DNA from: Candidatus Latescibacterota bacterium
Lineage (GTDB): Bacteria > Latescibacterota > UBA2968 > UBA8231
Reading direction: 5' to 3'
DNA length: 64,000 bases
Assembly: GCA_965217585.1 (NCBI GenBank)
Contig: OZ244561.1
Coordinates: forward strand, 7,072,001 to 7,136,000
The notes below the pieces were generated by a model. It was not told where the DNA came from. It saw only the letters and a program-made list of their open reading frames with translations, and did not search any database. The translations under genes were made by a program, and so were the position numbers. Each line of letters opens with the position of its first letter. The stretch's first letter is position 1. Of this stretch, positions 46,338 to 64,000 are shown piece after piece.

Positions 46338-48716
46338 CTACTCCTCTTCTACTACTTCCTCTTCTACTGCTTCCCCTGCCACTACTTCTATCTCAAGGAT
46401 TTTAAAACCTTCGAGCAATAAATCGACGTCTTGCTGCGTGGAAATAGGCGCAGGGGGGGCAGGAGGAGGACCGGGAGGAAAGGCTCCAGGTGGCGGAAGT
46501 TCATCAAAGCCGCCTTCGGGTTCGCCTTCACCTTCTTCACCTTCACCACCTTCAGGTTCACCCTCACCTTCTCCTTCACCTTCACCACCTTCAGGTTCAC
46601 CCTCACCTTCTCCTTCACCTTCACCACCTTCAGGTTCACCCTCACCTTCTCCTTCACCTTCACCACCTTCAGGTTCACCCTCACCTTCTCCTTCACCTTC
46701 ACCACCTTCAGGTTCGCCTTCTCCATCTACAAACTCAGGCGGTGGCTCGGGAAATGCCGGTGGCGGGGGTGGCGGGGGTGGCGCGACAAACGTCAAGCGA
46801 GCTTTTAAGAGGACATTCTCGTCGGGTTTATTCAGTCGTGCAAAAACATCATCGAGCGTTTCCTCACCCCCAAAAAACGATGGCGGTGGGCCGAACAACA
46901 GCGCATCGTCCCCTAATAGTGCGGCGGACCCCACTTCGAGTTGGTAAAAGCCAGGGAAGAGCGTGTCCGGCACGCTGAGGGCTAGCTCGACTTCCCGGTC
47001 CTTGGTCCGTCCCACGCGCAGTGAAGAGGTAATATTCAGCGTACTCCCAAGACTGACGACCGTGTCGGCAGTAACCTTCGTCAGGGTGGCAAAACGAGTC
47101 TCAGGAATCATTTCGACATGCACCTCGGCCTCGCGCACATATACGGCGTAATCGTACCTCGTCATAAGCTCCGAAAGTGCGAACGACACGTCGCCATAGG
47201 CATTAAAAATTGAGGCAAAGAGCCGTCCGCCTGGTGAGGAGTAGAGCCGGGAACGAGTGAGTGTTGAATCGGAGCCGGCAAAAGCGATATCCGTCGTAAC
47301 GCGGATACTGTGATCAGGATCGTTGTCGACCCGGTTGGCCAAGGGATAAAAGAATGCATTGGAGACGAGATCGAGCGAGGTATATGGGCTGATACCGACG
47401 GCCATCCTGTGCGTAAGTTCGAGTTCGCTCCCTGAAGGAAACGTATAGACGCTCTTAACAGGTACTAATTCTGGTTCCTGATCGAGCACGCCGCGCACCG
47501 CGGGCAAACGGTCTTCGGTCAGAGTGCCCCGCACCGTTGGATTCAGCGTTGCAAACTTGAACGGAGCGGACAAATTGGAAATTTCGCCGAGCACCTTTGC
47601 TTCGATTATGGGAAGCTCTACCGGACCGCTACTATTCATTGGATGCCCAAACCCATAGACCCGGTTGCCATCGACGTACGATATGGTTCCCATCGCACCC
47701 AGCGTAAGCTCACCGAGCAGCAACCCAACGGTCAGTGGCCTGCCGGCCTCAAAGCTGGCCTGACGCTCTTGGGTCAGACCAGCGGCGCTGGCTCCGCTCA
47801 GGATAGACGAACGCCCTTCAGGCAGCGAACGCACCCCATTGAGTCCCGTGCTGAGCAAGGGGGTATCCAAGGGAGTAATGCCGTTTCCTTCCCACGTGGC
47901 CGTGGGTTTGGCCGCAGGCATCATTCCCCGCGTGCCGATGACCCATTCTATGGGCGTGGCAAAAAAGTAGTACGGCGGGTTGTCTTGGGCAGAAAATCCA
48001 TAAGCAATGGCACCCCAGGTGCCCTGCTCCGTAAAAATGGGCGAACCGCTCATCCCCTGAGCAATGCCCCCAAGCTGTATCAGAACAGGGTCCGAGGCTT
48101 CGACCATATAGACCGGCATCGGTGCCAAAAAATCATCAACCACCTGGACGAACGTCATTTCGAGATCGGCGAGCTCGCCGTTAGCAAATTCAGTGCGCAG
48201 GAATACGGGCGTGCCCGGGGGCATGGCACGAACCTCGTCAGCCGAGACTATGGGCGAAAGATCCCAAGGCTTTAACTCCCCGGTGGGCCGCAAAATCGCT
48301 TCTGGAGCCAGGATGGAACCGGCAGCCGCCAGCATGGAATCAGCGGCGGCCAGCATGGTATTCGCGGCGGCTAGCATGGAAGCCGCATCGGCCGCTATCG
48401 TCGAATCTGCGTCTGCGGCGACCATTGCATTGGCGGCGGCGATCATCGAATTCGCGGTAGCCATCATGTCATTAGCAGCGGCCAGCATGGAATCGGCATC
48501 GGCGGCTATTGTTGAATCCGCGTCCGCAGCGATCATTATATTCGCGGTGGTCAGCATGGAATCGGCGGTGGCCAGCATGGTATTGGCGGCGACCAGCATG
48601 GAATCCGCGGTGGCGATCATCGAATCGACGGCAGCCGCCGTTGGTGCAGGATCGTCGTCGTCCCCACAACTCCATAGACCAACGGCGAGTGCGAGTAGTG
48701 CTAAACGAATCGGCAT
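46338..48716 (-). CDS. SpoIVB-like S55 serine peptidase lipoprotein with repeat regions
   Basis: Lipobox 'LWSC', 'GGIAQGMSGSPI', 'GTISYVDG.RVYGFGHP'. N-terminal heptad repeats and C-terminal Pro/Glu/Gly repeats. Confidence 0.85.
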   Translation of the reverse strand: MPIRLALLALAVGLWSCGDDDDPAPTAAAVDSMIATADSMLVAANTMLATADSMLTTANIMIAADADSTIAADADSMLAAANDMMATANSMIAAANAMVAADADSTIAADAASMLAAANTMLAAADSMLAAAGSILAPEAILRPTGELKPWDLSPIVSADEVRAMPPGTPVFLRTEFANGELADLEMTFVQVVDDFLAPMPVYMVEASDPVLIQLGGIAQGMSGSPIFTEQGTWGAIAYGFSAQDNPPYYFFATPIEWVIGTRGMMPAAKPTATWEGNGITPLDTPLLSTGLNGVRSLPEGRSSILSGASAAGLTQERQASFEAGRPLTVGLLLGELTLGAMGTISYVDGNRVYGFGHPMNSSGPVELPIIEAKVLGEISNLSAPFKFATLNPTVRGTLTEDRLPAVRGVLDQEPELVPVKSVYTFPSGSELELTHRMAVGISPYTSLDLVSNAFFYPLANRVDNDPDHSIRVTTDIAFAGSDSTLTRSRLYSSPGGRLFASIFNAYGDVSFALSELMTRYDYAVYVREAEVHVEMIPETRFATLTKVTADTVVSLGSTLNITSSLRVGRTKDREVELALSVPDTLFPGFYQLEVGSAALLGDDALLFGPPPSFFGGEETLDDVFARLNKPDENVLLKARLTFVAPPPPPPPPAFPEPPPEFVDGEGEPEGGEGEGEGEGEPEGGEGEGEGEGEPEGGEGEGEGEGEPEGGEGEGEGEGEPEGGEGEEGEGEPEGGFDELPPPGAFPPGPPPAPPAPISTQQDVDLLLEGFKILEIEVVAGEAVEEEVVEEE
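46536..46715. repeat. Perfect 39-bp tandem repeat, about 4.6 copies, coding (EGEGEGEGEPEGG)
   Basis: Unit TTCACCTTCACCACCTTCAGGTTCACCCTCACCTTCTCC starts at 46536, 46575, 46614, 46653 and 46692 (partial). Confidence 0.95.
48320..48630. repeat. Degenerate 21-bp (7-aa, A-D/N-S/T-M-L/I-A-A/T) coding repeats
   Basis: Recurrent CAGCATGG core. Protein reads ADSMLVA-ANTMLAT-ADSMLTT... Confidence 0.8.
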
Positions 48717-57428: not shown

Positions 57429-57947
57429 ATGAGAAGTCACAGAATTGCCGCAGCAGTAGTAGTTGCAGGAATCGCCATCGGCATTAGCTCAATCGCCGTC
57501 GCCCACGAGGACCACGACAAGGCTTCCGCACCCACGGCGTTCACCGCCATGACGCCGATTCTGAACGTCGCAAGCGTGGAGGCGAGCATCGAGCACTACA
57601 CCTCGGTTCTTGGTTTCAACAAGGACTGGGACTGGCCCGCCGAGGCCGAGGACAAGACCTTTGCCTCCCTATCCAATGGCGAGGTGCATATCTTTCTCGC
57701 CGAGAATTCGCAGGGTGCCCGACCGGTGTGGCTCTACTACAACGTCGGGGATGTTGACAAGCTGCACGAGGGGTACGCGGCGGCGGGGGCGAACATAAAG
57801 AAGGTGCCTGTTGACGAGCCTTGGGGGGCGCGGGAGATGCTGGTTGAGGACTTAGATGGGCATGTTTTGCGGATTGGCGGGCCGCCTAGCAGGGGAGAGG
57901 GTGGTGAGAGTGAGGAAGGGGGCGATGAGACGAAAGAAGATGGCTAA
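57429..57947 (+). CDS. VOC / bleomycin-resistance family protein with signal peptide
   Basis: 'TPILNV.SVEASIEHY..VLGF', 'PVDEPWGAREMLVEDLDGHVLRIG'. GGAGG RBS. Confidence 0.85.
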   Translation: MRSHRIAAAVVVAGIAIGISSIAVAHEDHDKASAPTAFTAMTPILNVASVEASIEHYTSVLGFNKDWDWPAEAEDKTFASLSNGEVHIFLAENSQGARPVWLYYNVGDVDKLHEGYAAAGANIKKVPVDEPWGAREMLVEDLDGHVLRIGGPPSRGEGGESEEGGDETKEDG

Positions 57948-58143
57948 AGTCAACGACACAGAGCAGCCTTCAGAGAGTGAGAACACTCGAACTATCCCTT
58001 CGGCGGTCAAACTCAAGCAGCTAATAGGCACCTCGCCCGCTTGCCGAATGCTGACGCCGGAAGAAATCGAGTTGCTGAGGAAAAGCAAGCAGGAAATGGA
58101 TCAAGTCGTGGGCGAGGTCCTTGCGGGGAAACGAGATACATAG
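57940..58143 (+). CDS. Small hypothetical protein (67 aa), paralogue of nested ORF 61212-61421
   Basis: MAKVND...LKQLIGTSPACRMLTPEEIELLRKSKQEMDQVVGEVLAGKRDT. 29/43 aa identical to the nested ORF. Start overlaps the VOC stop. Confidence 0.75.
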   Translation: MAKVNDTEQPSESENTRTIPSAVKLKQLIGTSPACRMLTPEEIELLRKSKQEMDQVVGEVLAGKRDT

Positions 58144-58191
58144 GATTTGACCAAGCCGATAAACCTGATTGGCGTGGAGTGCAGCAAGGAT
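58144..58191 (+). pseudogene. Remnant of the 3' end of an AAA/PD-(D/E)XK gene
   Basis: 39/48 nt identical to 57252-57299 (core 26/27). Translates DLTKPINLIGVECSKD versus GLGQPIYLIGVEFSKD. Confidence 0.75.
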
Positions 58192-58300
58192 GGGAGCGAA
58201 GCGGGGGCAGGCAGGCTCTGAGACGCCAATGCCGATGGAGTGGGCGACGCCAATGCTGCGGTAGCCGATGACTCCAGATCGGGTACATAGTAGGTTGCCT

Positions 58301-58424
58301 TATTCAATGAGGCCGGGGCAACGAGGCCCCGGAAATACGCACATACTTTGTGCGAGAAAATCACAACTCCCATACTTCAATGAGGCCCGACGATAGGGGA
58401 CGCTATTGCGCTGTCGGGGAAAAT
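58301..58424 (-). CRISPR. Single-spacer type I-G mini-array (one near-canonical and one divergent repeat); putative regulatory crRNA-like RNA
   Basis: Minus strand reads: divergent repeat ATTTTCCCCGAC...GTCGGGCCTCATTGAAGT (58424-58374), 35-nt spacer (58373-58339), repeat GTATTTCCGGGGCCTCGTTGCCCCGGCCTCATTGAATA (58338-58301). The GGCCTCATTGAA end and stem-loop match I-G repeats. Confidence 0.8.
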
Positions 58425-58439
58425 TTCATAGATTTATGG

Positions 58440-58474
58440 TTCATGGGAGTAGTAATATTAAACATTTTAGGAGG
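58440..58474 (+). promoter_or_regulatory. AT-rich putative promoter/RBS region containing a TTC-PAM partial protospacer for the mini-array spacer
   Basis: TTC (58440-42) followed by ATGGGAGTAGTAATATT, matching the spacer at 14 of the first 17 nt. -10-like TAATAT at 58453, AGGAGG at 58469. Confidence 0.65.
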
Positions 58475-58484
58475 ATAGAGTCCA

Positions 58485-58688
58485 ATGAGAAATAAATATT
58501 GCCTCACACATTTAGCTTTTCAGTTTGAGCAGGTTTCGGTCGAGATCGTTAATGACGAGCCATCCTACGGGACTAGATATGAGCAACGATCTAGGCCCTC
58601 CAACCCGGAACAGACTACTGTACCAAAACTCAAGCCCTTGTTGCTCCCCGCCGGGGACAGCGCGAGGAATACTAAAGATGACCTCTAA
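58485..58688 (+). CDS. Small hypothetical ORF (67 aa) leading the cas operon
   Basis: Perfect AGGAGG 10 nt upstream, ATG AGA AAT AAA start. No recognisable domain, so coding status is uncertain. Confidence 0.4.
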   Translation: MRNKYCLTHLAFQFEQVSVEIVNDEPSYGTRYEQRSRPSNPEQTTVPKLKPLLLPAGDSARNTKDDL

Positions 58689-58760
58689 CCAAACGAAACG
58701 TCGCGACTAATGTCAATCACCGCTGCGGCAAGACGCAGCCAAAACGAACGAGGATAGACT

Positions 58761-59969
58761 ATGATAATTGATCTACAGACCTTGCGGGACGCGGTTGGCG
58801 GAACGGCGGCAGCATTTCGGTGTGTGACCGACTATCAGCCGACGGGAGGCCGTGGTGATAAGGTTTTTCCGCCAACCTATGAAGGCGGCAAATACGCCAC
58901 AGAGGAGCGCGTTGATCCCGCTACTGGCGAGGTTCGGCAGTGCATTCTCTTGGATTCAGTGCAGTCGCAGGCCAACCGGATGGAGTTGGCATTGCTGGAG
59001 GCACACTGCGCCGGAACGGTACAGCTTCCTCTGCTAGTAACGCGCTTCGATCAGGAGAAACTGCTCAAGAAGTTCTCGGTGACCAGCTTGGAGGCACCTC
59101 ATCGCATCGCGGATGCGTTGTTCCGCGACAGCCTGCTTGAAGGCACGATTTTCCGCAAATCAGAGAAAGGTCGAATACTCGACACTGCGGAGGTGAGGAA
59201 CGCCACCGGCCTATTTGGCTTGTGTCCGACCGCACTGATATTTGGGCTGTGGGACTCGACTGGACCGCGTGGAGGCTTGGGGTGCAAGTTTCAGCGGGCG
59301 GTAGTGTCGGAGATTATGGGATATGATGCGGTGGCAGGGGAGAAAACAGGAAGCCGCATCGATCCCGCTCAGATCATGCTTGGAGCGGGTCCGTTATACG
59401 AGCGCAAGTCTTCAGATGATGATGTACCTGATTGGACCTTGGATGAAAAAGCGGGATCTAAAAAGTTGGGGAAGGACAAGAAAGGAAGGCCATCGGAAGC
59501 CAATCACGGAAACGTCACGCCAACTATTACGGAAGGCGGATTCACCATCTCCAGTGCCCGGCAAACGACAACCTTGTCTCTGGCCGTCTTGCGCCGTCTC
59601 CGTTTTCCCCACAACGGTGCCGCTGATTCTAACCACGATACCGACCTCGCGGCACGCACCGCACTGGCCGCCTTGGGCCTCACCGCCGGTATTCTAGCGA
59701 GGATCGATACGGACCTTCGCTCTCGTTGCCAGCTTTTCGCTGAACAAGAACCTGTGTGGGAACTGCTCGACCGCCCAGGAGAACCTCCACGGAAATTTGA
59801 ACTTAGTCCCGAAGATGCGCTGAAACTGTTGGCAGCGGCCATTACCGAGGCGAAAAACGCGGGACTACCGTGGGAGGACGAAATTGAGTTGACCCCATCG
59901 CCCGAACTTGTCGAACTGGTTCGGCGTAGCCAGGAATTGGCCAGCACATCGGGAGAAGGGGAAGACTGA
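58761..59969 (+). CDS. cas7: Type I-G CRISPR Cas7 (Csb1)
   Basis: 'KVFPPTY', 'LLDSVQSQANRME', 'PHRIADA', 'PTALIFGLWDS', 'LRSRC'. Confidence 0.93.
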   Translation: MIIDLQTLRDAVGGTAAAFRCVTDYQPTGGRGDKVFPPTYEGGKYATEERVDPATGEVRQCILLDSVQSQANRMELALLEAHCAGTVQLPLLVTRFDQEKLLKKFSVTSLEAPHRIADALFRDSLLEGTIFRKSEKGRILDTAEVRNATGLFGLCPTALIFGLWDSTGPRGGLGCKFQRAVVSEIMGYDAVAGEKTGSRIDPAQIMLGAGPLYERKSSDDDVPDWTLDEKAGSKKLGKDKKGRPSEANHGNVTPTITEGGFTISSARQTTTLSLAVLRRLRFPHNGAADSNHDTDLAARTALAALGLTAGILARIDTDLRSRCQLFAEQEPVWELLDRPGEPPRKFELSPEDALKLLAAAITEAKNAGLPWEDEIELTPSPELVELVRRSQELASTSGEGED

Positions 59970-62329
59970 TGTTCTCTCTTGGCATCCATTACCTGAATGG
60001 ATGGTCCATGGCAGCGGCGGACGGGGCGCGAAAAGAGCAGGCCGAATGGCCACCGCATCCCGATCGGGTGTTCATGGCGTTGGCGGCAGCTTGGTTCGAG
60101 ACCGGCGAAGATCCCGCCGAAGGCGAGGCCCTGCGCTGGCTTGAAGCCTTGCCACCCCCTGCGATTGCCGCCTCGGATGCGGACAGTCGCGTCACTGTTG
60201 TTAGCTATGTGCCCGTCAACGACGCGAACCTTAGTAGCAAGGTGCCTACTAGCGGAGACTTGAACAAACTAAAGAATGCCGGACTGGCCCAGCTTCCAGA
60301 GCATAGATCGCGCCAACCCCGTGGTTTCCCAGTTGCCATCCCCCATGATCCGACGGTACATCTAATTTGGCCGGATGCCGAATTGGGCGTACATCGCGTC
60401 GCCTTAGAACGGCTGGCCGCCAAAGTTACTCATGTGGGTCATTCGGCCTCCTTTGTGCAAATGTGGCTGGAAGCCAAGCCGCCGCCGCCCGCGTGGATTC
60501 CGACGTTTGGCGTCGCCCGTCAGCGACTGCGCGTAGCGAGCCCTGGGCGCTTGAAGGTGTTGGAAACGCGCATGAACCGCGCCGCATGGATCGCCTACCA
60601 CGATCTTCGCAGCGAGATTGAGCAAGCTGAGGCGGACCTCAAGGCGATGAAGCAACCGCCAAGGGTGCCTTGGAAGGCATTCGCGGATGTGGTGCTACTG
60701 GCCAGTGAATCTGCGGTCAAGCAGCATCCAGATTATCCCGGTGCCAAGACGGGTGACATCGTGGTCGCGACGAAACTAGTCAACAGCTTGGTTGACGAAG
60801 CGGGGATCGCCGCGATGCGGGAACTGATCGCCGAGGTTAGTGAAAGCGGCGATCCTGTACTAGTCAGCGCACATGCCTACGAACGCCAAAGCGTCAATGC
60901 CATTCCGATTGCCTTGGCGAAGTTGCTGAGCGAGCGACTCGGGATCCAGTTCGAGACTAATATCGTGCAGACCAATGTCGTTTCCCACACGGGTGCGGAC
61001 GGTTATGGCCGCCTTGCCCGCCAAGCTCGCTTTGAAGGCGGCGTTGATAAGGGCCGCGAATACGTGATGGTTGATGATTTCGTCGGTCAGGGCGGTACGT
61101 TGGCGAATCTGCGTGGCTGGATCCAAAAACAGGGCGGCAAGGTCGTCGGTGCCGTTGTGCTGACCGGCAAGCCGTACTCCGCTAAATTAAATCCTTCACA
61201 GGAGCAACTGCATGAACTCCGACAAAAACACGGATCAGACTTCGAGAGATGGTGGAAGGAACACTTCGGACACCCCTTCTCTTGCCTCACTCAATCAGAA
61301 GCTCGGTACCTCGCCCGCTCCCCGGATGTTGACACCATCCGAAATCGTCTTGCTGCGGCAAAGCAAGAAGGAAATGGCCCAAGTTGCACACGAAGTCCTC
61401 GCGAGCAAAGACAATACATAAAGGAAATGAAAGCGCGTTTGGAAGACTGTTTCCCCGATGGGAAGAAACCCGTGAGTCTGCCTCCGGTGCCGGGCCGTTG
61501 GCAGGGATACGATAGACCCCCGAAAGACAAGGCCCCCGAAGCTCCCGGCTCGGTTTTCGACCCTCAGCTCATTGTCCTCGGCATCAAAGGCAAGCGCGTG
61601 TCCTTGCCGGCGACGCTCAAGCTCACGGCGGCCCTGCGCAGCTTATTGATGAAAGAGTGTCCCGAACAACCGCCGCCCGAGTGGTTCAGTGGACATCGCT
61701 TGGACGGTACGCCCACCGCCGAACCGCATCTGGCTTTGACTCCGCTCCCCTTCGTCGGCGCAGAACATGCAGATGGTCGCATTATGGGTTTGGCTCTGGT
61801 TCTGCCGACGGGTTTGGATCAGCAGGAGGAGGCCGGGCATTGTCTCGAACCGTTCCTGCGCGACATAGCTACCGGATTGCCGCGTGAACATCCTTTGTTC
61901 GATGGCCAGTGGTTCGAGTGCGCTATTGAACTGGAAACCCGCGAACGCCCGCCGAAAAACCTTGACCCGGATACTTGGACACGGGAATCGCGCATTTGGG
62001 CGAGTGTGACCCCGGTGGTCCTGAACCGACATTTCGATGGTAAGGACAAGTGGGAGCGGGCGGCTGAGAGCGTGAAAGATGCATGTCTGCACATTGGTCT
62101 GCCGCGCCCACGCGAGGTGTTGCTGCACCCGGTTTCGCTGGTTGAGGGCGTCCCCCATGCGAGGGAGTATCCGCAACTGATGCGTAAGAACGGTGGGCGA
62201 CGGAGCCATAATCACGCGGTGATCGTCTTTGATGAGCCGGTGCGCGGGCCGGTGCTCGTGGGGGCAGGTCGCTTCCGGGGATATGGGTTGTGCCGCCCGA
62301 TGGATGGAAAAGGTGAAGATCGTGACTGA
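59969..62329 (+). CDS. csb2: Type I-G Csb2 (Cas5/Cas6 fusion) with inserted phosphoribosyltransferase-like domain
   Basis: N-terminal 'EWPPHPDRVFMALAA', C-terminal Cas6 G-loop 'GPVLVGAGRFRGYGLC'. Internal 'YVMVDDFVGQGGTL' PRPP-binding motif at 61061-61102. 786 aa. Confidence 0.9.
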   Translation: MFSLGIHYLNGWSMAAADGARKEQAEWPPHPDRVFMALAAAWFETGEDPAEGEALRWLEALPPPAIAASDADSRVTVVSYVPVNDANLSSKVPTSGDLNKLKNAGLAQLPEHRSRQPRGFPVAIPHDPTVHLIWPDAELGVHRVALERLAAKVTHVGHSASFVQMWLEAKPPPPAWIPTFGVARQRLRVASPGRLKVLETRMNRAAWIAYHDLRSEIEQAEADLKAMKQPPRVPWKAFADVVLLASESAVKQHPDYPGAKTGDIVVATKLVNSLVDEAGIAAMRELIAEVSESGDPVLVSAHAYERQSVNAIPIALAKLLSERLGIQFETNIVQTNVVSHTGADGYGRLARQARFEGGVDKGREYVMVDDFVGQGGTLANLRGWIQKQGGKVVGAVVLTGKPYSAKLNPSQEQLHELRQKHGSDFERWWKEHFGHPFSCLTQSEARYLARSPDVDTIRNRLAAAKQEGNGPSCTRSPREQRQYIKEMKARLEDCFPDGKKPVSLPPVPGRWQGYDRPPKDKAPEAPGSVFDPQLIVLGIKGKRVSLPATLKLTAALRSLLMKECPEQPPPEWFSGHRLDGTPTAEPHLALTPLPFVGAEHADGRIMGLALVLPTGLDQQEEAGHCLEPFLRDIATGLPREHPLFDGQWFECAIELETRERPPKNLDPDTWTRESRIWASVTPVVLNRHFDGKDKWERAAESVKDACLHIGLPRPREVLLHPVSLVEGVPHAREYPQLMRKNGGRRSHNHAVIVFDEPVRGPVLVGAGRFRGYGLCRPMDGKGEDRD
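61212..61421 (+). CDS. Nested out-of-frame small protein (69 aa) inside csb2
   Basis: AGGAG (61200-61204) lies 7 nt before the ATG. Homologous to 57940-58143 with mostly synonymous changes in this frame. Confidence 0.7.
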   Translation: MNSDKNTDQTSRDGGRNTSDTPSLASLNQKLGTSPAPRMLTPSEIVLLRQSKKEMAQVAHEVLASKDNT

Positions 62330-64000
62330 GTTGAACGACGCTACGGACTTCGCTGAGTTTTTCAACGAGTTGTGGGGCCATAAGCCTTTTGCTTGGCAGC
62401 AGGAATTGGCGGATAGAGTGCTGAAGCGGGCAGAGGCTCCTTGGCCCGAAGCCATTGCCTTGCCGACAGCAGCAGGCAAGACCGCGTCCTTGGATATCGC
62501 CGTGTTCGCGTTGGCAGCCCAAGCATCTCGGTTGGCTCGGAAGCAAGCCATCACTGCACCGCGTCGCATCTTCTTCGTGGTGGACCGGCGCGTGATAGTG
62601 GACCAAGCATATGAGCGGGCACGCCTGTTAGCAGACCATCTTGAGAAAGCGCAGGACGGCGTTATCAAGCGCGTTGCGGACAACCTGCGCCAGATTGCTC
62701 ACGGCGAGGCGGACGGGTTTGAGAAGGCACGGCCGTTGGCCGCTTATGTATTGCGCGGTGGCATGTATCGGTCGGAGGCTTGGATGAATAGCCCGCTTCA
62801 ACCCATGGTGGTGGCCTCGACCGTCGATCAAATCGGCTCTCGCTTGTTATTTCGCGGCTATGGACGCGGCCATCGCACGTGGCCGATAGCTGCGGGATTG
62901 GTCGCCAACGACAGCCTAATCCTACTCGACGAGGCGCAGTGCGCCCAGCCGTTCTTACAAACCCTGCAAGCGGTGCGGCGCTATCAAAAATGGGGGCATA
63001 CGCCGCTTGAACGTCCCTTTTACCCGGTGGTGATGTCGGCGACCCCGCCGTCGGGGGTGGACCTATTCGAGGACCTATCCGCCGAAAGCCGCAATCCTGA
63101 CCATACGCTAGGTAAGCGCCAACTAGCACAAAAGCCCGCCATCCTGAAGACAGTCGGAAAAGCCAAGGGAAAGCGGGCTACGAGTGTGCTGGCTAGGGCT
63201 TTGGCCGATGCTGCATCGGAGCTGGTCAACGACGAATGCCGCGCTATCGTGGTGTTCGTCAACCGCGTTGCCACGGCGAGGGAGACTTATTGCTTGCTCC
63301 ACAGTCGGGAAGACATTGACGCTGTACTGCTAACAGGTCGGATGCGCCCCGTTGACAAAGAGGTCGTCGTACAACGCTTAAAACCCCTCCGGTCGAGCCA
63401 ATCCGCAGAACGCACTTTGGAAAAGCCGATGATCGTCGTGGCTACCCAAACTCTGGAAGTGGGGGCCGATCTCGACTTTGACGGCTTGGTGACCGAGTGC
63501 GCGAGTCTCGATGCCTTGCGCCAGCGCTTTGGTCGATTGAATCGCATGGGGCGGAAGATTGATGCGCGAGCAGAGATTCTCGTACGCGGCGACCAAACAG
63601 GCGACAAAGGGGACGACCCCGTGTACGGCGAGGCCCTTACTAAGACTTGGGCTTGGCTCAACGAGTGCCAAGACGAAAACGGCGAGGTCGATTTCGGGAT
63701 TGCCCATCTTGAAGAGAAATTGCCAAAGGGCGATTCCCTGACTGCACTCAACGCACCTTCCGTCAATGCCCCGGTGATGCTTCCTGCCCATGTTGATTGC
63801 TGGGCACAGACAGCACCGCAACCACAACCTTCTCCTGATGTGGCTCCGTTTCTGCATGGTCCTCGTGAAGGCGCGGCGGATGTGCAGGTCTGCTGGCGTG
63901 CTGATGTGGATTTGACCCGTGAAAAGGAGACGTTGGAACTTCTGTCCTTGTGCCCGCCGAGCAGCAGTGAGACGCTCCCGGTGCCGGTCGGTGTGTTCAA
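62322..64000 (+). CDS. cas3: Type I-G Cas3 helicase/nuclease, 5' part (runs off window end)
   Basis: Absent from the ORF track. GTG start overlaps the csb2 stop. 'KPFAWQ', 'LPTAAGKT', 'PRRIFFVVDRRVIVDQ', 'LLDEAQ', 'MSATP', 'ATQTLEVGADLD', 'QRFGRLNR'. Confidence 0.93.
   Translation, partial: MTELNDATDFAEFFNELWGHKPFAWQQELADRVLKRAEAPWPEAIALPTAAGKTASLDIAVFALAAQASRLARKQAITAPRRIFFVVDRRVIVDQAYERARLLADHLEKAQDGVIKRVADNLRQIAHGEADGFEKARPLAAYVLRGGMYRSEAWMNSPLQPMVVASTVDQIGSRLLFRGYGRGHRTWPIAAGLVANDSLILLDEAQCAQPFLQTLQAVRRYQKWGHTPLERPFYPVVMSATPPSGVDLFEDLSAESRNPDHTLGKRQLAQKPAILKTVGKAKGKRATSVLARALADAASELVNDECRAIVVFVNRVATARETYCLLHSREDIDAVLLTGRMRPVDKEVVVQRLKPLRSSQSAERTLEKPMIVVATQTLEVGADLDFDGLVTECASLDALRQRFGRLNRMGRKIDARAEILVRGDQTGDKGDDPVYGEALTKTWAWLNECQDENGEVDFGIAHLEEKLPKGDSLTALNAPSVNAPVMLPAHVDCWAQTAPQPQPSPDVAPFLHGPREGAADVQVCWRADVDLTREKETLELLSLCPPSSSETLPVPVGVF

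Follow-up and report, generated by a model that had tools for sequence, protein, structure and literature searches.

Cas-regulating, CRISPR RNA (crRNA)-like RNAs, termed CreR, have been validated for types I-B, I-E and V-A, and the accessible text of the same preprint reports creA-like elements, found by hand near effector-gene promoters, for types I-D, I-C, I-E, I-F and I-U (Liu et al., bioRxiv 10.1101/2023.03.10.532045); I-U is the old name of type I-G, and the I-U cases appear there as predictions in a supplementary figure (Figure S7). The accessible part of a second preprint names regulatory mini-arrays for types I-B, I-E, I-F1, I-D, I-A and V-A (Shmakov et al., bioRxiv 10.1101/2023.03.03.530964). 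Here we analyse a stretch of 64,000 nucleotides (nt) from a Candidatus Latescibacterota bacterium (assembly GCA_965217585.1, contig OZ244561.1, positions 7,072,001 to 7,136,000; hereafter the window, within which all positions are counted), where a minus-strand mini-array stands beside a type I-G cas operon. Comparison of this locus with its relatives makes it likely that a crRNA-like RNA of the CreR kind is encoded by the mini-array and autorepresses the cas promoter, and the comparative evidence (15 loci, their target-flanking motif, pairing periodicity and covariation) fits the RNA-guided autorepression put forward in the original prediction, a note made from the sequence alone. To our knowledge, type I-G is the least studied of the type I systems, and we know of no regulatory guide that has yet been tested in it.

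A degenerate repeat-spacer-repeat unit and its match

The mini-array lies 336 nt upstream of cas7g and is made of a downstream repeat-like element (psiR2), a spacer-like guide (psiS) and a divergent upstream repeat (psiR1), which are listed with the other features in Table 1. The genome's CRISPR array is found on the plus strand beyond the cas genes and contains 90 repeats according to a regular-expression search, the repeat being 37 nt long and ending in ATTGAAGC. psiR2 shares 27 of 37 positions with this repeat. Its two stem arms, the linker of 4 nt (CCTC) and ATTG have been kept, all 7 loop bases are replaced, and the hairpin is present in the predicted fold. A search of Rfam matched psiR2 to CRISPR-DR16 on the minus strand (32.6 bits for a gathering score of 35, E 1e-5) and psiR1, weakly, to CRISPR-DR20 on the same strand (16.6 bits, E 2.2). 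In psiR1 a stem remains around a loop of 21 nt and is followed by the 4-nt linker (CCTC) and the 8-nt handle ATTGAAGT (58374-58381). psiS starts with ATGGGAG (opening sequence ATGGGAGTTGTGATTTTC) and has a length comparable to that of the 87 array spacers, which are mostly 36-37 nt. The unit is thus a degenerate repeat-spacer-repeat derived from the system's own CRISPR repeat. Its parts, and the handle and CCCGAC/GTCGGG stem that psiR1 retains at the same register, were located as originally described, with Cas7g/Csb1, Csb2 and Cas3g identified downstream by NCBIfam; the length of 51 nt given for the upstream repeat is not reproduced by our boundaries, which yield 52 nt. For I-G Cascade, the accessible part of the source (Shangguan et al., bioRxiv 10.1101/2022.08.08.503147) describes a TTN protospacer adjacent motif (PAM), a handle of 8 nt, cleavage at 4 nt 3' of the hairpin and the flipping out of every sixth base. 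In the mini-array, CCTC separates each stem from ATTG, which fits this cut.

The spacer pairs partly, from the PAM-proximal end, with a plus-strand site carrying the cognate PAM. Over the first 17 nt of the target (ATGGGAGTAGTAATATT, 58443-58459), 14 positions agree with psiS (1-8, 10, 11, 13, 14, 16 and 17), exactly reproducing the match behind TTC that was originally reported, and the agreement ends after position 18. The probability of such a match arising by chance was estimated with psiS fixed, requiring TTN, the seed (positions 1-5, 7 and 8) and at least 13 matches at the 15 non-flipped positions. When the two flanks of 500 nt were dinucleotide-shuffled 5000 times, no qualifying match arose, and TTN plus seed alone occurred in 16 of the 5000. 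The G+C content of 58426-58484 is 32%, vs 60% for the window; shuffling the AT-rich 120 nt alone likewise gave no qualifying match (0/20000). Within the 7.3-Mb genome, 29 sites have TTN and the seed, two of these with 11-12 of the 15 positions, and among the three sites with at least 11/15 the local one is the best. The only good match of psiS in the genome is this TTC-flanked site, which starts some 8 nt downstream of the -10 box in the predicted cas promoter. The genome carries this self-match in intact form.

A perfect full-length match of the spacer to a phage or plasmid, named in the original prediction as what would refute it, was also looked for. psiS gave no full-length match in the phages (5 partial matches, all with E of at least 1), no match in the plasmids and, for its 24-nt 5' part, none in IMG/VR, in collections which may not cover the viruses of such bacteria. 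The 87 array spacers have no real protospacer elsewhere in the genome; six 17-18-nt matches were found, at chance level, so that the array itself provides no PAM.

Table 1. Features of the mini-array, its target and the downstream genes (window positions unless another locus is named).
Feature	Position	Strand	Description
psiR2 (downstream repeat-like element)	58301-58337	-	Hairpin CCGGGGC/GCCCCGG, CCTC, then ATTGAATA
psiS (spacer-like guide)	58338-58373	-	36 nt; 5' 17 nt match the target; 3' half predicted to fold into a CGCACA/UGUGCG hairpin
psiR1 (divergent upstream repeat)	58374-58425	-	52 nt; stem of 58413-58418 with 58386-58391 (CCCGAC/GTCGGG)
Predicted cas promoter	58406-58434	+	-35 TTGCGC (58406-58411, inside the psiR1 loop), 17-nt spacer, -10 TAGATT (58429-58434)
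PAM	58440-58442	+	TTC (TTN), from the sequence; TTN adjoins the target in 14/15 loci
Target	58443-58460	+	18 nt, ATGGGAGTAGTAATATTA; equals psiS except at positions 9, 12, 15 and 18
Candidate mini-array promoter	58464-58491	-	TTCTCA-N16-TAAAAT, reading away from the cas genes; prediction
67-amino-acid (aa) open reading frame (ORF), small-ORF family	58485-58688	+	Shine-Dalgarno sequence AGGAGG (58469-58474); first ORF behind the predicted targeted promoter
Small-ORF family member, L054	2802-3008		
Small-ORF family member, L087	2805-3008		
Small-ORF family member, L061	2793-3008		
Small-ORF family member, L040	2798-3001		
Conserved leader hairpin	58722-58739	+	GCTGCG/CGCAGC, just before the cas7g ribosome-binding site
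cas7g (csb1)	58761-59969	+	TIGR02570, E 1e-20; PF09617, E 1e-50
csb2 (Cas5-Cas6 fusion)	59969-62329	+	786 aa; TIGR02165, E 6e-89
cas3g	62229-64000	+	Runs past the window end to 65282 on the window scale; TIGR02621, E 6e-225 for the full ORF

Pairing rule and covariation across 15 loci

The species-representative genome collection was searched for stretches encoding a Cas7g relative, and the best 80 of 568 were kept. Together with L013-L022, from genomes of the window's own family, they gave 90 upstream regions, or 83 distinct ones after the removal of 7 identical pairs. In 25 of the distinct regions cas7g is immediately preceded by a gene for a 'Cas3-extension' protein (the extension gene), 42 have neither this gene nor a recognised mini-array, and 16 are mini-array-like, 15 of them clearly (the window, L032, L036 (identical to L015), L039 (identical to L018), L020, L054, L056, L061, L064, L065, L070, L072, L073, L087 and L098) and one, L110, doubtfully. 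The 15 loci were picked by eye from a scan for hairpin plus ATTG that was blind to targets. An unbiased scan, run without a covariance model, found no TTN-flanked candidate in the 42 distinct loci which start with cas7g and have no recognised mini-array; for the 25 loci with the extension gene before cas7g, the region upstream of cas3g lay outside the scan.

In all 15 loci the spacer-like sequence, preceded by an 8-nt handle (ATTGAAGN, GTTGAAGC or ATTGCAGN), shows a partial match to the plus strand, at a site located in the interval from mini-array to cas7g. Positions 1-5 match in 15, 15, 12, 15 and 15 of the loci, positions 7-11 in 15, 14, 12, 15 and 15, and positions 13-17 in 12, 14, 13, 15 and 13, while positions 6, 12 and 18 do so in 4, 6 and 2 loci, respectively. 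From position 19 to position 36 there are 1-6 matches of 15, which is the level expected by chance. The PAM is TTN in 14 of the 15 (L061 has CTA), for a TT dinucleotide frequency of 0.066 in these regions (binomial P 4e-16). TTN together with at least 13 of the 15 non-flipped positions is found in 13 loci (all except L039 and L061), compared with a mean of 0.003 loci after shuffling (300 rounds). When spacers were swapped onto other loci, 5 of 210 pairs matched, all of them within related families. Both the TTN PAM and the rule of an unpaired base at every sixth position, on which the original prediction relied, are seen in the set as a whole. In the position pattern evolution has spelled out the 5+1 pairing rule known from type I Cascade, and the pattern agrees with what would be predicted from the structure of I-G Cascade.

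Spacer-target covariation in related loci had been proposed as a check, and it is found, both as compensatory double changes and as a coordinated shift of 1 nt. Between L054 and L087 the 18 nt vary at positions 6, 12 and 18 alone. Between L054 and L056 there are double changes at 2, 9 and 16 which keep the pairing. Six double changes separate L098 from L020 and three separate it from L064; between the window and L032 there is one, at position 5. Compared to the window, L036 and L039 each carry an additional G in front of ATGG on both sides, in the guide after the handle and in the target after the PAM, and the register is therefore kept by a coordinated change. In psiR1, 11 of the 15 loci have a stem of 5 bp or more with 4±1 nt from the end of its 3' arm to the handle (mean 4.8 and maximum 9 loci in 200 rounds of shuffling). 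The loops measure 16-31 nt and the stem sequences differ among the 11, so that the stem kept in register through compensatory changes, originally noted for the window, also holds across loci. On these comparative grounds we regard selection on the pairing and on the PAM as demonstrated.

Two observations were made alongside. About 250-160 nt upstream of its cas7g, L110 contains an 18-nt inverted match differing only at positions 12 and 18. It was considered as a further member (15/15 matches, ATT as PAM) and excluded from all counts, as no repeat or handle is recognisable; possibly it represents a strongly degenerated form of this arrangement. The unpaired 3' half of psiS (58338-58355 in the window) forms a GC hairpin of 4-7 bp, with differing sequences, in 7 of the 15 loci (the window, L032, L036, L039, L054, L056 and L061). 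The mean minimum free energy is -3.9 kcal/mol, vs -1.5 kcal/mol among the 87 spacers of the array (Mann-Whitney p 0.001), an enrichment which is suggestive only, given that four of the seven loci are from one family and that the G+C content is higher.

Predicted promoters, proposed autorepression and its alternatives

The predicted -10 box of the window ends 8 nt before protospacer position 1, and the genes under this predicted promoter would be the 67-aa ORF followed by cas7g-csb2-cas3g. No terminator-like site was found in 58150-58800, hence none between the target and cas7g; the suggestion that the leader ORF is also under control agrees with this, the same predicted promoter preceding it. 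The promoter pair was chosen by homology to L032, L036 and L039, which have TTGCGC or TTGTGC, N17 and a better -10 than the window's at the same place, and it scored 7/12, the same as the two other candidates which headed the scan for the window. The candidate mini-array promoter is the sole promoter-like match that the promoter-finding tool returned in 58150-58800, and a perfect TTGACA-N17-TATAAT is present at the matching place in L036. Its predicted transcript start falls inside the 36-nt target footprint, which in full would extend to 58478 and cover the Shine-Dalgarno sequence of the small ORF. A simple hexamer scan of the 15 loci, supplemented for the window's family by reading, places a sigma-70-like promoter candidate next to the target in 14 of them (L073 has no clear promoter). 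In ten of the 15, TTGACA (nine loci) or TTGACG (L070) is followed by 17 nt and TAnnnT a short way before the PAM. In nine of these, protospacer position 1 comes 5-19 nt after the end of the -10, and in L061 the target overlaps the -10. Because of this placement in the other loci, the target is taken to sit on the start region of a predicted promoter directed towards cas7g.

The following sequence of events is proposed. The mini-array would be transcribed on the minus strand and cut by Csb2 within both psiR1 and psiR2, at 4 nt beyond the stem, giving a product made of the 8-nt handle, the 36-nt psiS and the psiR2 hairpin. This RNA would be loaded into an I-G Cascade of Cas7g, Csb2 and probably the 'Cas3-extension' protein, which would pair with the target over three Cas7 segments (17-18 nt) and form an R-loop too short for attack by Cas3. 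Cascade bound to the start region would then block RNA polymerase, and the level of the effector would repress its own synthesis. Probably the divergent mini-array promoter would be repressed as well, because its predicted start lies in the footprint. The repression would be lifted, as the analogy with CreR suggests, once free Cascade is lost or titrated away (by many crRNAs or by anti-CRISPRs). Transcription, Csb2 processing, loading, repression and relief upon a fall of free Cascade are all inferred here.

The small ORF is relevant to the question of what is being controlled. It has no Pfam or NCBIfam match, and its best score in the ESM Atlas (0.80) is at noise level. It belongs to a family of 66-72 aa proteins with a common core around '..SIEI..D.P', encoded between the predicted targeted promoter and cas7g. 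A profile search of 1.84 billion representatives retrieved seven small proteins (five inputs or near-copies and two further members) and one weak match (E 2.4e-5) in a protein of 1221 aa. Among the 13 other mini-array loci scanned (L020 was left out), the family is present in L054, L087 and L061, perhaps in L073, and in the first three its stop overlaps the start of cas7g (end at +10). L039 has a matching frame without a start codon, L032, L065, L070 and L072 have unrelated short ORFs only, and no family-like ORF lies between target and cas7g in L036, L056, L098 and L064. A second ORF of 67 aa (57940-58143), upstream of the mini-array, has no family match; a stretch 52% identical to it (41 aa, E 3e-8) is found directly upstream of cas7g in L034, about 216-91 nt before the gene, a locus without mini-array.

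A CreTA-like addiction module, in which the guide would act as CreA and silence a toxin encoded by the 67-aa ORF, the control of cas being secondary, is suggested by the strong Shine-Dalgarno sequence of this ORF directly behind the predicted targeted promoter and by the recurrence of its family, with no known domain, at this place in several loci; one CreA site is also described, in the accessible part of the source, as controlling both creT and cas8 in H. hispanica. The family is however restricted to three loci and perhaps a fourth among the 13 others, the stop overlapping the cas7g start gives it the look of an operon member rather than of a separate toxin unit, the ORF has no terminator of its own, and nothing in it marks toxicity, so that we consider this module improbable. 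Little probability is likewise left to a functional guide whose main job is elsewhere, either at other loci or only at its own divergent promoter, with an incidental effect on cas: the predicted start of the mini-array promoter inside the footprint and the 29 genomic sites with TTN and seed (two with 11-12/15) would accommodate it, but no other site in the 7.3 Mb is as good as the local one, and a site is found between the mini-array and cas7g in all 15 loci, adjoining a plus-strand promoter candidate in 14. It is most unlikely that the unit is a decaying array remnant or an eroding self-targeting spacer and its promoter match a chance event or functionless scar. Repeats do degenerate at array ends, and the nearest relatives are without the element; yet the match was not reproduced in the 5000 shuffles, the same design is found in 15 loci from metagenome-assembled genomes (MAGs) labelled with several phyla, the mismatches gather at 6, 12 and 18 with a sharp boundary at 18 and with compensatory changes, and, in the collections searched, psiS has no full-length match in phages or plasmids, nor its 24-nt 5' part in IMG/VR.

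Autorepression of the cas promoter by a CreR-like RNA remains the reading we prefer, and several points weigh against it. The cas promoter is a prediction, partly selected by homology, and its -35 box in the window is weak (3/6). The window target is mismatched at two of the paired positions (9 and 15), L039 is a poor fit (11/18 positions), and so is L061, with its CTA PAM and a seed mismatch at position 3. The related loci are not independent, with roughly 8-10 spacer families among the 15; some of them were first found via a seed-match scan, and the hairpin-based choice was made by eye. Csx17/Cas8g (TIGR04113) was not detected in the window's genome by a profile which matches the positive control G092 and also misses G093-G096, its absence being for this reason unproven. 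The closest orthologous loci, in G014 and G065 (Cas7g 88 and 85% identical), are without the whole module of about 735 nt, i.e. mini-array, promoter and small ORF, and a glyoxalase-family gene there abuts the hairpin and cas7g. This looks like loss, because other genera have the module, and the module is therefore dispensable. Finally, four RNA-library runs each contain 5-6% of the words of the stretch (four further runs, of unstated kind, hold the stretch), and the RNA-library contigs, aligned at a likeness of 88%, come from relatives, mostly 90-95% alike. One type of these contigs joins 58364-58388, in the handle region of the mini-array, to cas7g (58803 onward), skipping 414 nt; neither a small RNA nor the strand is visible in it, and it gives support in neither direction.

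A more elaborate version is possible, although we hold it to be doubtful: an I-G regulator with parts beyond those of CreR, in which the psiS hairpin may cap the R-loop, the psiR1 stem is kept around a loop widened to 16-31 nt, which in the window's family holds the predicted -35 box of the cas promoter, and the protein of about 68 aa may be a co-regulator or an unrecognised small subunit of a Cas8g-less I-G variant. This is a joint reading, which also includes that the loci would state the binding rule of I-G Cascade, namely TTN and three 5-nt segments, with 6, 12 and 18 free and nothing after 18.

Spread of the design, effector make-up and known systems

Cas7g relatives are present in 16 of the 76 genomes of the window's family. 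The Cas7g proteins of L032-L111 are 62-90% identical to that of the window and come from MAGs titled with many phyla (Latescibacterota, Binatia, Caldilineaceae, Dehalococcoidia, Bryobacterales, Alpha- and Gammaproteobacteria, and others), and several sequencing-run labels read sponge metagenome. This suggests horizontal spread inside a single type of community. L014, from the window's genus (G014), is identical to L105 over the last 330 nt upstream of cas7g. The conserved leader hairpin and a conserved A-rich stretch are kept in L014-L018 and L032, even where there is no mini-array (G014 and G065); the hairpin was considered as a terminator and rejected, as no T-run lies behind it. In two species of the window's genus, small arrays of the same repeat family are found near a distant cas7g (L005 in G002, 1400-1900, with 6 repeats, and L007 in G006, 1400-1600, with 2 repeats). 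Their first spacer is common save for one base, and no convincing TTN or seed target was found for it.

The assignment to type I-G is based on TIGR02570, TIGR02165, TIGR02621 and NF049935, all above the NCBIfam cut-offs, and the set comprises Cas7g/Csb1, Csb2, Cas3g and a Cas4g/Cas1g fusion. Past the window end the operon continues with an NF049934 'Cas3-extension family' protein, a type III-like module, Cas4g/Cas1g, Cas2 and then the array. In the classical I-G order, cas8g is directly upstream of cas7g. Here the NF049934 protein is encoded after cas3g instead (L001 8249-9208, window scale 65249-66208), a gene otherwise seen directly upstream of cas7g in the 25 of 83 related loci given above; positions 1274-2956 of L067 belong to the same observation. 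The type III-like module, between the extension gene and cas4g/cas1g (L001 9361-14083, window scale 66361-71083), encodes a 498-aa Cas10, Csm2, Csm3, Csm4 and a CARF-type protein. The match between this Cas10 and the Csm1 profile is confined to the C-terminal part of the latter; used as a query, the protein was found in G014 and not in G051, G046, G067 or G096. Csb2 has 786 aa here vs 492 positions in the profile. Elsewhere in the window, long tandem repeats (46513-46715 and 48307-48625, with periods of 39 and 21/42/111) lie within a minus-strand ORF of 792 aa (46338-48716).

The literature search returned no paper joining type I-G with CreR, crRNA-like RNA or mini-arrays, one apparent match being just an item in a list of references; 'I-G', 'I-U', 'Csb1' and 'Csb2' are absent from the main text of Shmakov et al., whose supplements may list such loci, and the accessible part of a later preprint on viral mimics mentions neither I-G nor I-U. 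This agrees with the original statement that there is no experimentally characterised I-G case, though the CreR preprint mentions I-U candidates. The present locus is a well-supported member of a kind already known (CreR, CreA and mini-arrays), and not a new mechanism or principle. In the literature examined it is the first comparative proof for I-G, and supplementary lists may already hold such loci. Judging from the loci compared, CreR-type control would extend to a Cas8g-less I-G variant spread among uncultured bacteria labelled with many phyla. The 15 loci form a ready set of natural guide-target pairs which state the positions that must pair, and are usable for the design of I-G-based gene repression, and for testing autoregulation and anti-CRISPR sensing with reporters.

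The closest likeness is to CreR, with which the mini-array has in common its degenerate form, its place beside the cas operon, a psiS that pairs only PAM-proximally with the effector-gene promoter (here a predicted one), and the predicted autorepression without cleavage. It differs in that loci of the window type pair over 17 nt (three Cas7 segments), in the 16-31-nt loop of psiR1, and in the small ORF by which, in some I-G loci, the predicted promoter is separated from the first cas gene. For haloarchaeal I-B and for I-F systems, CreTA is described, in the accessible part of the sources, with two degenerate repeats around a partly matching spacer, with Cascade as repressor and with divergent promoters tightly flanking the target, all as seen, predicted or proposed for the present case, whereas the I-G design is kept in loci without an ORF between target and cas7g, and its small ORF is not marked as a toxin. 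The regulatory mini-arrays of Shmakov et al. (bioRxiv 10.1101/2023.03.03.530964), as far as the accessible text describes them, likewise consist of a two-repeat unit whose spacer matches a promoter region of effector genes with a cognate PAM and a conserved seed. More distantly, tracr-L of type II-A is also reported, in the accessible part of its source, to be a natural guide which autorepresses its own effector through a short stretch of base pairs with the promoter; it is part of a class 2 system (Cas9), pairs over 11 bp and has another RNA origin.

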